Source of the DNA: Anaerohalosphaeraceae bacterium
GTDB lineage: Bacteria; Planctomycetota; Phycisphaerae; Sedimentisphaerales; Anaerohalosphaeraceae
Reading direction: 5' to 3'
Assembly (NCBI GenBank): GCA_050309605.1
Contig: JBNRMN010000033.1
Coordinates: 96,001 to 160,000 of the forward strand
DNA length: 64,000 nt
Part shown: positions 43,375 to 49,210 of the stretch, in pieces
How positions within the stretch are numbered: the first letter of the stretch is position 1
How the letters are laid out: each line of letters starts with the position of its first letter
Notes under the pieces: model-generated
Seen by the model: only the letters and a program-made list of their open reading frames with translations
Database searches by the model: none
What the model was told of the DNA's origin: nothing
Program-made: the position numbers and the translations under genes

Positions 43375-44019
43375 ATGAAAAGGCAGATAACGGTTCTGAT
43401 GATCGGGTTAATGGGGCTTTCGGCTGTTGGGGATGCGGCTTTTCCCACACCGGCGATTGTTCAAAAGCCGACTGAATGGACGCTTTCCGTCCAGTTTGAA
43501 CATCCCCGTCAAATAACGCTGCGTGTACCGGGGCGTCAGGGGCCGGAGCGTTTTTGGTACCTCATTCTGTCGCTGACCAACGACAGCGTCCATGCGGATG
43601 TGCCGTTTGTCCCGACCTGCGAGCTGGTCACGGATAATTTTGAGATTATCCCCGCCGGGTTTGGCATTCCCAAAGGTGTCTTTGAGACGATCAAGCTCAG
43701 ACACCAGGGCAGCTATCCGTTTCTTGAATCGCTGGATTTTAAGGATAACCGGATTCGTCGCGGGGCGGACAACACGCGGGATTTTGTCGTTATCTGGAAA
43801 GATTTTAACCTCAAAGCCAGCGAAGTCAGTTTTTTTATAGCAGGGTTGAGCAATGAAACGACAGCGATTTTGCATCCGACTCGGACCGACGAAGAAGGCA
43901 GCCCCGTTAAGGTGTTTCTGCAAAAGACTCTTCAACTCCGCTATAATGTCGGCGCCGACGCCGCCCGGCGCGATCGGGCTTCTCTTGAATTGATCGGGCG
44001 GGAATGGGTCATGCGGTAA
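43375..44019 (+). CDS. Hypothetical exported protein
   Basis: Signal peptide, AAGGA RBS, 214 aa predicted beta-rich. Confidence 0.7.
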   Translation: MKRQITVLMIGLMGLSAVGDAAFPTPAIVQKPTEWTLSVQFEHPRQITLRVPGRQGPERFWYLILSLTNDSVHADVPFVPTCELVTDNFEIIPAGFGIPKGVFETIKLRHQGSYPFLESLDFKDNRIRRGADNTRDFVVIWKDFNLKASEVSFFIAGLSNETTAILHPTRTDEEGSPVKVFLQKTLQLRYNVGADAARRDRASLELIGREWVMR

Positions 44020-44025
44020 ATTGTC

Positions 44026-44067
44026 TCGGAGGTCAGAAGCCAGAAGCCAGAAGACAGAAGTAAGAAT
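44026..44067 (+). repeat. 7-bp tandem array (NCAGAAG) just after a stop codon
   Basis: TCGGAGG TCAGAAG CCAGAAG CCAGAAG ACAGAAG TAAGAAT; a decayed complementary unit ATTTCTG at 44081. Confidence 0.75.
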
Positions 44068-44104: not shown

Positions 44105-45310
44105 TCAGGCGTTGTGGGTGCGTTTGCAGCGGGGACAGCGGACGGTTCGGTCTTTGTAATCCGGCGGCAGTTTAAGCCGCAACCCGCAGGTACAGGGGAT
44201 GAAGGTAAAGCCGTTGACCTTGCGCATAATATCGCCGACTTGGCGCTGTGAATGTTTCGGAGAAACGGGCTGAGCGGAGGCGTCGCCTTGACGCAGGCCG
44301 ACTTCTTCATCGGGTTTGACTGCTGAGGGGGGGATAACGCTGCCCCGATGGGTCACCTGTTCGAATGCCTGGTTATAATCTCGATACCCGGCCCCGTGAG
44401 CCATAGTGTGCAAAATCCGAATGCGTTCTTCGATAGGCGGGTGTGTACTGAACAGATTCATTGCCTTTTTGCCGCGGAAGGGGTTGGCGATATACATCGG
44501 CGCGGTAGCTTTGTTGGCCGATTCCATTGAAATGTTGGTTCCGGCGATCTTTTCCAGCGCCCCGGCCAGCCCGTGCGGATACCGGGTCAGCCGGACCGCC
44601 CCGGCATCGGCCAGATACTCCCGTTTGCGCGACAGACTGAAATACAAAATCTGGGCAAACAGCGGCGCCAAAATGGCCGCGACAATCGCCAATACCATGA
44701 TCAGCGCCTGCGCTCCGCCGCCGCCACGCGACCGTGAGGAATAGCGTCGCCCGCCCAACGCACTGTAAAACATCCCGCGCAAAAAAACCTGGCTCAGCAG
44801 CACAATCGCTCCGAGCATCACGCCGGCCACCGTGACATACAAGATGTCGCGATGAAGGATATGGCTGATTTCGTGGGCGATGACACCCTGCAATTCGTCG
44901 CGGTTGAGTTTGCCCAGCAGTCCGGCGGTCACCGCCACCGAGGCGTTTTCGGGGTTGCGGCCGGTGGCGAAGGCGTTCGGGGCCGGGTCATTGATGATGT
45001 ATATTTTCGGCATCTTCGGCAGATTGGCCGCGATGGTCATCTCTTCAACGATGTTAAACAGTTGCGGATGGACTTCTTCGGTGACCCGCTGCGCCCGACT
45101 GGAAGCCAGCAGAATCTGATCGCCGCCATACAGACTGACCAGCATCATCACCAGCCAGACGCAGGTGGCAATGAAAATGCCGATCCAGCCGGCATCCGGA
45201 CCGCCCCCGAAGGCGAATCCGAGCATAAACCCCAGTCCGCACAGCACCACCCCCATCAGGCCGAGCAGTATGACCGAATTCCGTTTATTGACGCGAATTT
45301 GTTCCCACAT
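44105..45310 (-). CDS. htpX: HtpX-like M48 membrane zinc metalloprotease with a C-terminal Zn-ribbon extension
   Basis: PNAFATG, V.VT.GLL, HEISH, SR.REY.AD, STHPP..ERI; tail CTCG...CPRC. Confidence 0.9.
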   Translation of the reverse strand: MWEQIRVNKRNSVILLGLMGVVLCGLGFMLGFAFGGGPDAGWIGIFIATCVWLVMMLVSLYGGDQILLASSRAQRVTEEVHPQLFNIVEEMTIAANLPKMPKIYIINDPAPNAFATGRNPENASVAVTAGLLGKLNRDELQGVIAHEISHILHRDILYVTVAGVMLGAIVLLSQVFLRGMFYSALGGRRYSSRSRGGGGAQALIMVLAIVAAILAPLFAQILYFSLSRKREYLADAGAVRLTRYPHGLAGALEKIAGTNISMESANKATAPMYIANPFRGKKAMNLFSTHPPIEERIRILHTMAHGAGYRDYNQAFEQVTHRGSVIPPSAVKPDEEVGLRQGDASAQPVSPKHSQRQVGDIMRKVNGFTFIPCTCGLRLKLPPDYKDRTVRCPRCKRTHNA

Positions 45311-45351
45311 AGTATTAGTTTTAAGTTTTAAGTTTTGAGTTTTGAGTTGTT
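45311..45351 (+). repeat. 7-bp tandem array (AGTTTTN x5), left arm of an inverted pair
   Basis: AGTATT AGTTTTA AGTTTTA AGTTTTG AGTTTTG AGTTGTT, abutting the htpX start codon. Confidence 0.85.
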
Positions 45352-45701
45352 GTATTGCCTGTTTTTACGATGCTGGTCAACATTTTTATCAATTCTTTGC
45401 GCTCATTAAGCAGAGAGGTTGACTGTTTGTCGGTCAGAATATCACAATCCGTTAATAATCTTATCCAATAATGCGTTTCTCTGGCCTCCTTCGATGCGAT
45501 TGCCATTTTGTAAAAAATTTCTTTTCGACTGTGGCTGGCGGCGGCCTCTTCGACATTCGCGCCGATGCCGGTTCACGAACGGATCAATTGTCCTGAAAGT
45601 TCATAATGCTGTTTGTCTTTTAACCATAAGCTGAGTTTCACAATGCGAACTGCAAAATGATAACTTTTTTCACGCACCGTATGCCCTGCCTGTACAGTCA
45701 T
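45321..45701 (-). pseudogene. Four-helix-bundle protein (23S rRNA IVS protein / TIGR02436-like) with an in-frame nonsense codon
   Basis: Hand translation: MTVQAGHTVREKSYHFAVRIVKL...ELSGQLIRS*TGIGANVEEA...KMAIASKEARETHYWIRLL...KELIKMLTSIVKT. TGA at 45573-45575 (codon 43) sits where the family motif QL.RSGTSIGANV.EA has Gly. Confidence 0.88.
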
Positions 45702-45718
45702 TTATCCGACTCAGCACA

Positions 45719-45774
45719 AAAACTAAAAACTAAAAACTAAACACTAAAAACTAAAAACTAAAAACTAAGAACTA
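45719..45774 (+). repeat. 7-bp tandem array (AAAACTA x8), right arm of an inverted pair
   Basis: AAAACTA x3, AACACTA, AAAACTA x3, AGAACTA; the last CTA is the lemA stop codon. Confidence 0.92.
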
Positions 45775-46326
45775 AAATTTAACCTGCGGCACGCTGCGTT
45801 CCGCTTCGTTTTCAATTTCAAAGTAATCGCGTTTGGTGAAATTGAACATCCCGGCAACCAGATTCGACGGGAACATCTGGATTTTATTGTTATAGAACAG
45901 CACCTGGTCGTTGTAGCCCTGGCGTGCGAAGGCGATTTTGTTTTCGGTACTGGTCAGGGTTTCCTGCAGCGACAGGAAATTCTGATTGGCCTTCAGGTCG
46001 GGATAGTTTTCCACGACCAGCATGAACTTGCTCAGCGCCTCGGTCAGTTGCCCCTCGGCCTTGGAGGCCTCGGCAACGCTGTGCGCCCCCATGGCTTTGC
46101 TGCGGGCCTCGGTGATTTTCTCAAACGTCTCCCGCTCGTGTGTCATATAGCCTTTGGCGGTTTCGACCAGATTGGGGATCAAATCGTGTCGCCGCTTGAG
46201 CTGGACGTCGATCTGCGACCAGGCGTTGTCCACCTGATTGCGCAGCCGGACAAGAGCATTGTAAATACCGATAAACAACACCACCAAAAGAACAAGAACA
46301 ATCAGCGCGGTAATTATGCCTGCCAT
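45772..46326 (-). CDS. lemA: LemA family protein
   Basis: N-terminal TM, YN.LV.LRN.V.NAWSQIDVQLKRR.DLIPNLVE, ENYPDLKA, ENKIAFARQ.YN, FPSN. Confidence 0.95.
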   Translation of the reverse strand: MAGIITALIVLVLLVVLFIGIYNALVRLRNQVDNAWSQIDVQLKRRHDLIPNLVETAKGYMTHERETFEKITEARSKAMGAHSVAEASKAEGQLTEALSKFMLVVENYPDLKANQNFLSLQETLTSTENKIAFARQGYNDQVLFYNNKIQMFPSNLVAGMFNFTKRDYFEIENEAERSVPQVKF

Positions 46327-49103: not shown

Positions 49104-49110
49104 GAAAAAA

Positions 49111-49197
49111 TCAAAGATCAAAAAGCAAAAATAAAAAATAAGGAAGTCCGGCCCAAAGGGCCGTCCGCTATGTTGATTTTTAACGTTTGATATTTTA
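49111..49197. repeat. Inverted pair of 7-bp tandem arrays around a small GC hairpin
   Basis: TCAAAGA TCAAAAA GCAAAAA TAAAAAA TAAGGAA / CGGCCC-AAA-GGGCCG / ATGTTGA TTTTTAA CGTTTGA TATTTTA. Confidence 0.7.
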
Positions 49198-49210
49198 TCT
49201 GGAGTAGAAT

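Follow-up and report, generated by a model that had tools for sequence, protein, structure and literature searches.

Why should a gene for a four-helix-bundle (4HB) protein lie between lemA and htpX, enclosed by heptamer arrays in inverted orientation, and what kind of element is it? The question arose in a stretch of 64,000 nucleotides from an Anaerohalosphaeraceae bacterium (contig JBNRMN010000033.1, positions 96,001 to 160,000; hereafter the window, whose own numbering is used for this locus), where a first-pass annotation made from the letters alone had placed such a gene between lemA and htpX, a placement with which the matches to PF04011, PF01435 and TIGR02436/PF05635 agree. The answer that we favour, with moderate confidence, is that the locus represents a class of cassettes in which a promoterless 4HB gene lies within inverted arrays of a short tandem repeat, most often a heptamer, the whole being placed exactly between two genes of a single transcription unit, and that this class is the protein-operon counterpart of those intervening sequences (IVS) of 23S rRNA which bear an open reading frame (ORF); the RNA steps of this reading we infer. 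Judged by its sequence, the lemA-htpX unit is a well-formed member of the class, which is widespread.

The cassette at the lemA-htpX junction

The first triplet of the 5' arm is the lemA stop codon itself (TAG, 45774-45772, minus strand), and the eight UAGUUUU-like units that the first-pass annotation had counted from that point were recovered both in the sequence and by Tandem Repeats Finder (TRF; 8.6 copies, 92% matches, score 106). The 3' arm, at 45353-45311 of the same strand, reads ACAACAACT CAAAACT CAAAACT TAAAACT TAAAACT AATACT, so that (C/U)AAAACT-type units and a terminal AATACT do reach the htpX ATG as described, although four of the units are clean and not five. The ATG of htpX at 45310 stands directly after this arm and 10 nt from the stop codon of the 4HB gene (ATG 45701, TAA 45323-45321), whose final 11 codons overlap the arm. 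No Shine-Dalgarno (SD)-like motif (AGGA, GGAG or GAGG) was found within 18 nt upstream of the 4HB ATG, and none was found upstream of the htpX ATG, in line with the earlier description of that start. A scan of the 4HB strand of the junction for promoter- or terminator-like sites, which is weak evidence, found none. The two arms share an inverted match of 39 nt that is 85% complementary and is arranged in 6-bp blocks, and five of the six mismatches in the best pairing are pyrimidine-pyrimidine, which agrees with the proposed mismatch of that kind at each seventh position. The arm-arm duplex was calculated at -24.8 kcal/mol, a value reached by 0/1000 mononucleotide shuffles (shuffle mean -12.9).

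Scored with hidden Markov models (HMM), the read-through translation of the 4HB frame exceeded both family cut-offs, as the first-pass annotation had expected: with the in-frame TGA taken as Gly, after the orthologues, it reached 94.6 bits against TIGR02436 (cut-off 24; model positions 1-107 of 109) and 84.7 bits against PF05635 (cut-off 33.8). A profile of the orthologues matched PDB entries 2RLD (E 2.9e-43) and 2GSC (E 1.5e-4), with five chains in each entry, and the protein is basic, with an isoelectric point of 9.45. Between orthologues the ratio of non-synonymous to synonymous substitution rates (dN/dS) is 0.05-0.11 for the 4HB gene, 0.065-0.087 for lemA and 0.09-0.117 for htpX, values which indicate that purifying selection maintains the 4HB gene here, as it does the two neighbours.

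The nonsense codon reported earlier is real in this assembly, where the TGA at 45575-45573 interrupts the frame, but two DNA metagenomes of two other studies (runs X4 and X6) have a C at 45575 of the plus strand, which gives GGA, and the orthologues in the relatives G006 and G004 have Gly at codon 43. Because these two metagenomes and both orthologues agree on GGA or Gly, we regard the TGA as private to this assembly, where it either arose by mutation very recently or is an error of the consensus; G006, G004, a further relative (G028) and the contigs of runs X4 and X6 all have an uninterrupted frame. Recoding of the TGA as Gly or selenocysteine was considered and rejected, since the adjacent zinc-ribbon gene terminates at TGA, which makes recoding unlikely, and since the other populations carry GGA.

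These data bear on a reading that we hold to be very improbable, namely that selection acts on the arms alone, in a non-autonomous element with a dying passenger gene. Three of the seven 4HB copies of this genome are damaged with their arms kept (the lemA copy with its TGA and those at C96 and C67), gene-less arm pairs exist, and the ORF in the Coxiella IVS is decaying according to the part of PMC4990558 drawn on here. However, the TGA is absent from the two other metagenome populations and from both orthologues, the dN/dS values are as given above, and about 140 of about 150 family matches in 41 genomes of the same order have no internal stop. For this locus we therefore do not retain the first-pass view that the passenger gene decays while the arms persist.

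Table 1. Features of the lemA-htpX junction, in window coordinates
Feature	Position	Strand	Basis
lemA (LemA family)	45772..46326	minus	PF04011, 219.1 bits; stop TAG 45774-45772
5' arm, 8 tandem TAGTTTT-type heptamers, with variants TAGTTCT and TAGTGTT	45719..45774	minus	TRF
Spacer from 5' arm to 4HB ATG, 17 nt	45702..45718	minus	sequence
Four-helix-bundle (4HB) gene, PF05635/TIGR02436, 126 codons + TAA	45321..45701	minus	HMM
In-frame TGA, codon 43 of the 4HB gene	45573..45575	minus	ORF translation
3' arm, four clean (C/T)AAAACT units, degenerate unit(s) at each end	45311..45353	minus	TRF, 4.6 copies
htpX (M48 zinc protease)	44105..45310	minus	PF01435, 119.9 bits; NF003425, 321 bits, below its cut-off of 355

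Recurrence, allelic states and movement of the cassette

If the arms belong with the gene, other 4HB genes of the genome should be flanked by arrays, as the first-pass annotation had reasoned, and this was the case for every copy. In this genome (G000; assembly 99.73% complete) inverted arrays enclose all seven TIGR02436 matches, with a heptamer peculiar to each copy (GATGGAC/GTCCATC, TAGAATT/AATTCTC and a GGTCAGA-type among them), and 6/7 loci are above the 95th percentile of between-locus complementarity. This complementarity was scored ungapped between loci, the RNA.duplexfold matrix being too noisy (7/33 loci under its 1st percentile). In the same order, 34/41 genomes have the 4HB family; 20/33 loci are above the 95th percentile and 12/33 above the 99th, and the best period is 7 in 23/33 of the 5' flanks and 24/33 of the 3' flanks, with period 8 in a few. 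A cross-phylum scan of species genomes, limited to this protein subfamily since the broader alignment was too diverse and a narrower one was used, gave 578 relatives; of the best 80 of these, 76 were usable, and period 7 was found in the 5' flank at 46 loci and in the 3' flank at 56; by record title they come from Planctomycetota, Verrucomicrobiota, Bacteroidota, Chloroflexota, Proteobacteria and others. The heptamers sort with the proteins: 13/16 loci of clade A have AGTTTTT, AATTTTT or AGTTTTG, and those of clade B mostly have AATTACG or AATTAGG, so that within the protein subfamily, as far as a quick tree with many open forks can tell, heptamer type follows protein clade. Two damaged copies in G000 deserve description: that at C96:51317-51583 has its arms, its match is interrupted by a stop and its open frame covers 88 aa, and that at C67:162100-162279 has its arms and the C-terminal half of the 4HB gene only.

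The lemA-htpX junction itself is found in a whole range of states. Among 30 lemA loci, we compared the 21 with htpX and left out the nine without htpX in the locus, one of which (G018) has a frameshifted 4HB gene right after lemA. Four of the 21 junctions are loaded (G000, G006, G004 and G028, the last from another family), two hold remnants (G002, G003), four hold arrays only (G009, G034, G023, G001), seven are short empty spacers of 10-42 nt, and four contain other inserts (G007, G026, G029, G037). The remnant in G002 is a decayed 291 nt; G003 (L042 738-1501) retains its arms and the opening ~17 codons of the 4HB gene, which then runs into a stop, and beyond it lies an unrelated ORF of 164 aa that has a hydrophobic stretch at its N-terminus and matches nothing in Pfam. 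The array-only junctions comprise a 94-nt hairpin of a different heptamer (G009), arrays with the heptamer type of the congener G028 (G034), one array (G023) and two units (G001); where the 4HB gene is lost, its arms outlast it. With its empty, loaded, remnant, arms-only and passenger-swapped alleles, the junction alignment supports the view of the cassette as a discrete unit inserted between lemA and htpX, and the search for relatives with the gene but without arms came back empty, all relatives loaded at this site having arms.

The six genus members found all carry the cassette or a derivative of it at lemA-htpX. Unit number in the 5' arm varies, with four units in G006 against eight here, and the contig of run X4 shows a 21-nt length difference across 45402-46225, the span that holds this arm. 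In G028 the 4HB protein, LemA and HtpX are 60%, 66% and 65% identical to those here, respectively, and the arms are of the type AATTTT/AAAATT as against AGTTTT/AAAACT, a compensatory change that runs through both arrays. Two Planctomycetota records, L068 and L086 (labelled Pirellulales), also have the order lemA-4HB-htpX with AGTTTT-type arms. The cassette may have been inherited vertically at this junction over a long time and lost in many lineages, or it may have been inserted there repeatedly; both histories are possible.

A site other than lemA-htpX gave evidence on movement. G006 is the sister genome of G000, with LemA 99% identical, and the two have in common the cassette sites at lemA, C96, C3 and two positions of the leu operon. 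At G000 C52:52207-52286, however, about 80 nt lie without gene or arrays where G006 has a cassette (L181) with GATGGAC/GTCCATC arms, and this cassette matches the C3 cassette of G000 at 76% identity over a 415-nt stretch that takes in the arms. Because a paralogous cassette with the same heptamer arms thus occupies a site that is empty in G000, we conclude that gene and arms move together. The C52-type site is also loaded in G003 (L185) and unloaded in G002, G004 and G001, and its flank was not found in G005; no target-site duplication could be defined from the loaded and empty states. At another junction, G000 C67:127217-127277 is a gene-less hairpin of AATTTCC type, and the same junction in G006 (L182) is loaded with a cassette that has TTGAATA-type arms. 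Of the features of miniature inverted-repeat transposable elements and insertion sequences, the cassette has the inverted ends and no transposase. The term non-autonomous, used in the first-pass annotation, was not borne out; if anything, the cassette with its gene has the look of a complete form, and the array hairpins without a gene that of a reduced one.

Movement raises the alternative that the arms act at the level of DNA, as ends of a mobile element and as hairpin- or cruciform-forming, slippage-prone sequences that are substrates for insertion, excision or gene conversion, with mRNA pairing a by-product. This is a serious contender which we nonetheless judge unlikely, and which may well coexist with a role of the arms in RNA. 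It would accommodate the presence or absence of the whole unit between close genomes and the paralogous copy with the same heptamers, the swapping of the passenger between intact arms in G003, the gene-less hairpins at junctions and the unit number that varies between strains, as well as the vocabulary that lone arrays share with the cassettes (see below). On the other hand, the cassette and its surroundings contain no gene for a transposase, recombinase or reverse transcriptase, no target-site duplication is definable, and insertion blind to the strand would not lead one to expect the strong co-orientation and tight abutment that we describe in what follows.

Junction anatomy was tabulated for 104 loci, 79 of which have arms scoring at least 12. 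Among these 79 armed loci, 66 have an upstream same-strand stop, at most 10 nt from the arm in 48, and 54 have a downstream same-strand start, which in 41 falls within -8 to +15 nt of the arm end; as a rule, the arms abut the upstream stop and the downstream start. SD-like motifs precede 10/54 of the downstream starts and 17/79 of the 4HB starts, and the latter figure indicates that many of these phyla make little use of SD motifs in any case.

The sites themselves are diverse. Three cassettes, each with its own heptamers, occupy the consecutive leuA-leuC-leuD-leuB junctions at G000:C33:73331-76322 (L003, L005, L006), where the flanking genes (leuA, the large dehydratase subunit, leuD, leuB) were confirmed with NCBIfam. 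A 4HB cassette lies between tRNA-Met and tRNA-Glu in G015 (L012), another 34 nt downstream of RNase P RNA in G014 (L036), and a third directly before a tRNA-Glu (L091); no rRNA match was found in the cassette loci of 15 relatives that were scanned. Copies next to tRNA and RNase P RNA, and in the literature within rRNA, point to transcribed and processed spacers, which again speaks against arms that act on DNA alone. A sister group of cassettes from Planctomycetota, with arms of AGTTTT type, occupies another junction (L072, L074, L076, L077, L079), whose downstream gene, which we take to be NifU-like at L072, L074, L077 and L079, begins ATGTGGGA (MWEYTDK...), as does htpX (MWEQ...); the common gene beginning at both junctions may reflect chance or a target preference.

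Heptamer arrays beyond the cassettes

G000 contains 140 period-7 arrays of at least 2.9 copies, of which 21 have an inverted partner (at least 16/21 matching, within 1.5 kb) and 33 fill a same-strand stop-to-start junction, as against 58/1400 random windows. The arrays are thus concentrated at the boundaries of genes. Array placement was called with crude ORFs, among which spurious antisense ORFs inflate the class 'inside long ORF' (the two arrays of the window, at 44034 and 49106, were wrongly assigned), and only the contrast with random windows was used. The 132 arrays that do not adjoin a 4HB gene draw on the vocabulary of the cassettes: 24 are identical to a cassette heptamer in any rotation or strand (shuffles: mean 3.6, maximum 11), and 81/132 are within one mismatch of one (shuffles: 22.7 +/- 3.8). 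For the largest array families of G000 (GGTCAGA-type, AAAAATC, AACTACG) the cognate cassette is broken or there is none.

An array pair without a gene is also present in the window, at the ilvB-ilvN junction (49106-49205, plus strand), in the form of a hairpin of AAAAATC-type and GATTTTT-type units around a small GC-rich central hairpin. G000, G006, G004 and G003 have kept it, in G002 it has decayed, and G001 has a 27-nt spacer without it; in other genera (G008, G036) the ilvB-ilvN junction has hairpins of other heptamers. Elsewhere in the window, a lone array of about four CTTCTGG-type heptamers (44034-44066) sits between htpX and the plus-strand ORF 43375-44019, whose ends converge there, and no inverted partner of the array was found (best 13/21). 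At G000:C34:209592-209622, AATTTTG x 4.4 runs in frame in a long minus-strand ORF, presumably glycosyltransferase-like by eye, and encodes ...NSKFKIQN...; arrays are therefore not confined to intergenic DNA.

Arrays of this general kind have precedents, among them the short tandemly repeated repetitive (STRR) sequences of cyanobacteria, which are dispersed tandem heptamer arrays. According to the sections of the sources drawn on here, TAACTGA repeats occur in Beggiatoaceae, cyanobacteria and Bacteroidetes and in most cases stop 1 nt short of a start codon without an SD motif (PMC4679880), and the GGGAATC repeats of Xanthomonas include 70-75 convergent, that is inverted, pairs (PMC4692102). Like these dispersed arrays, the cassette arms are intergenic, often end at an SD-less start, vary in copy number and in some cases form inverted pairs, and at lemA-htpX the tandem heptamers of the 3' arm end at the SD-less ATG of htpX. 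Unlike them, this 3' arm has a gene and an inverted array as partners. Text searches inside PMC4679880 and PMC4692102 found that neither connects its arrays with a 4HB gene or an IVS, whereas in G000 the arrays share their vocabulary with resident 4HB cassettes.

The precedents suggest a further alternative, that the arrays are host regulatory elements of junctions, signals for translation or mRNA stability, and that the 4HB gene merely lands or survives there; we think this distinctly improbable. In its favour are the 140 arrays with only 21 in inverted partnership and their excess in stop-to-start junctions, the ilvB-ilvN hairpin that is kept in the genus without a 4HB gene, the C67 junction that is gene-less in G000 and loaded with another heptamer in G006, and the position of TAACTGA arrays just before SD-less starts described in part of PMC4679880. 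It is opposed by the location of 7/7 4HB genes of G000 inside arrays, by a heptamer type that tracks protein clade across phyla, by the paralogous cassette that came to a new site with its own heptamers, and by the seven relatives whose empty lemA-htpX junctions work without an array.

Known counterparts and a possible course of expression

Having set these alternatives against the reading of a promoterless 4HB gene in inverted arrays as counterpart to the rRNA elements, we return to that reading and to the system from which it takes its model. By sequence and arrangement, the closest known system is the ORF-bearing 23S rRNA IVS. In Coxiella burnetii, as set out in the part of PMC4990558 used here, the IVS has a 28-bp stem of terminal inverted repeats and an S23p ORF, as well as the heptamer GACAGAT in two to three tandem copies, depending on the strain, and RNase III cuts at the first of these; the same part lists ORF-bearing 23S IVS in Leptospira, Brucella and Xanthomonas and describes 23S IVS as regarded as selfish and possibly mobile. 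In both systems a 4HB ORF of PF05635/S23p type lies in the loop of inverted repeats with variable tandem heptamers, and at lemA-htpX complementary termini likewise form a long stem around the ORF. The IVS lies inside a host transcript, and so, to judge by its same-strand junctions, would the cassette. The 23S IVS is located in helix 45 of 23S rRNA, whereas the cassette lies in a junction of protein genes and elsewhere in tRNA and RNase P spacers; and, unlike in the IVS, both arms are long arrays that abut stop and start, and the gene is under purifying selection. As insertion in a 23S rRNA helix is the defining feature of an IVS and the unit studied here lies between lemA and htpX, we do not class it as an IVS member. 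A literature link between 4HB genes outside rRNA and inverted heptamer arrays was not found in a search that did not cover subscription-only journals.

A homologous small basic four-helix-bundle protein, Avd, is the accessory protein of diversity-generating retroelements (DGR), according to the part of PMC10053308 consulted. An Avd/DGR role for the 4HB protein was considered and rejected, as no reverse transcriptase was found, there are no template or variable repeats, and the neighbours are lemA and htpX. The search for a reverse transcriptase of family PF00078 drew a blank in the assembly, which is 99.73% complete, and because of this the 4HB protein is not taken for a DGR Avd here.

On the model of the IVS, the cassette would be transcribed from the promoter of its host operon as lemA-4HB-htpX, and its arms would pair in the transcript to give a long, regularly mismatched stem. 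By analogy with the IVS, this stem would be a likely substrate of RNase III, whose cut is known in the Coxiella IVS and whose gene is present in G000, and cutting would separate the 4HB message from those on either side. The start of htpX, with no ribosome-binding site of its own, would then lie at the foot of the stem, and htpX would be translated by coupling, as ribosomes that terminate on the lemA or the 4HB frame open the stem. The basic 4HB protein may serve as the cassette's own nucleic-acid-binding factor.

Several observations weigh against this reading. Of the fold proposed in the first-pass annotation, the long-range pairing of the arms was upheld, being included in both the minimum free energy and the centroid folds, but the 495-nt region as a whole folded no better than shuffles (z = -1.13; 14/100 shuffles as good). 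We consider the latter score uninformative, because the A/U-rich arms contribute little energy, and used the arm-arm duplex in its place. The arms are unequal, with eight against about five units, and their mismatches show no excess of the G-U type, which numbers 60 against 51 of the A-C type (24:19 and 36:32). Since there is no such bias, the sense RNA is not singled out as the selected partner, and a cause at DNA level fits these counts equally well. RNA-type runs X18 and X20 gave only short scraps, in which the heptamer matches come from other organisms. Among the same-order loci, 13/33 are not above the 95th percentile of complementarity, and three of these 13 (L010, L021, L034) have no arrays by eye. 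The ilvB-ilvN hairpin is conserved in four genomes of the genus, yet a 4HB gene was found at that junction in 0/30 relatives. Finally, the Coxiella S23p ORF, on the account given in part of PMC4990558, seems unexpressed and decaying, unlike the gene studied here.

A parallel of a different kind is offered by the REPIN-RAYT systems, in which a gene is flanked by inverted short repeats, the same repeat is dispersed as gene-less intergenic hairpins (REPINs), and each gene variant is paired with its own repeat type. The RAYT protein is an HUH transposase, and its repetitive extragenic palindromic sequences (REPs) are single palindromic units; unlike RAYT, the 4HB protein has no known catalytic motif that its sequence would reveal, the cassette repeats are tandem heptamers, and their mobilisation by the protein would be conjectural. 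We suggest only tentatively, and with more doubt than belief, that 4HB proteins and heptamer arrays form such a partnership, in which each paralogue acts in trans on its own heptamer arrays. Consistent with it, heptamer type tracks clade, lone arrays share the cassette vocabulary and 7/7 genes lie inside arrays; against it, the largest array families have a broken cognate cassette or none, and common descent alone could explain the correlation. If it were true, the cassettes would be the complete members and the 100-plus gene-less arrays and hairpins their dependants or relics, and the STRR, TAACTGA and GGGAATC repeats together with the 23S IVS would be footprints of one protein-repeat system in transcribed spacers.

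What is new in the present analysis is the allelic series at lemA-htpX, the paralogous cassette at a site empty in the sister genome, the purifying selection on the gene, the private TGA and the shared array vocabulary. PF05635/TIGR02436 is a very large family without an assigned function, heptamer arrays have been known for decades as an oddity of bacterial genomes, and the origin of the rRNA IVS is unsettled; the lemA-htpX locus and its relatives tie the 4HB family, the heptamer arrays and the rRNA IVS into one physical unit. As a natural allelic series, the lemA-htpX junction makes the pairing and cutting of the arms, the coupling of htpX and the binding of the protein to its repeat directly testable.

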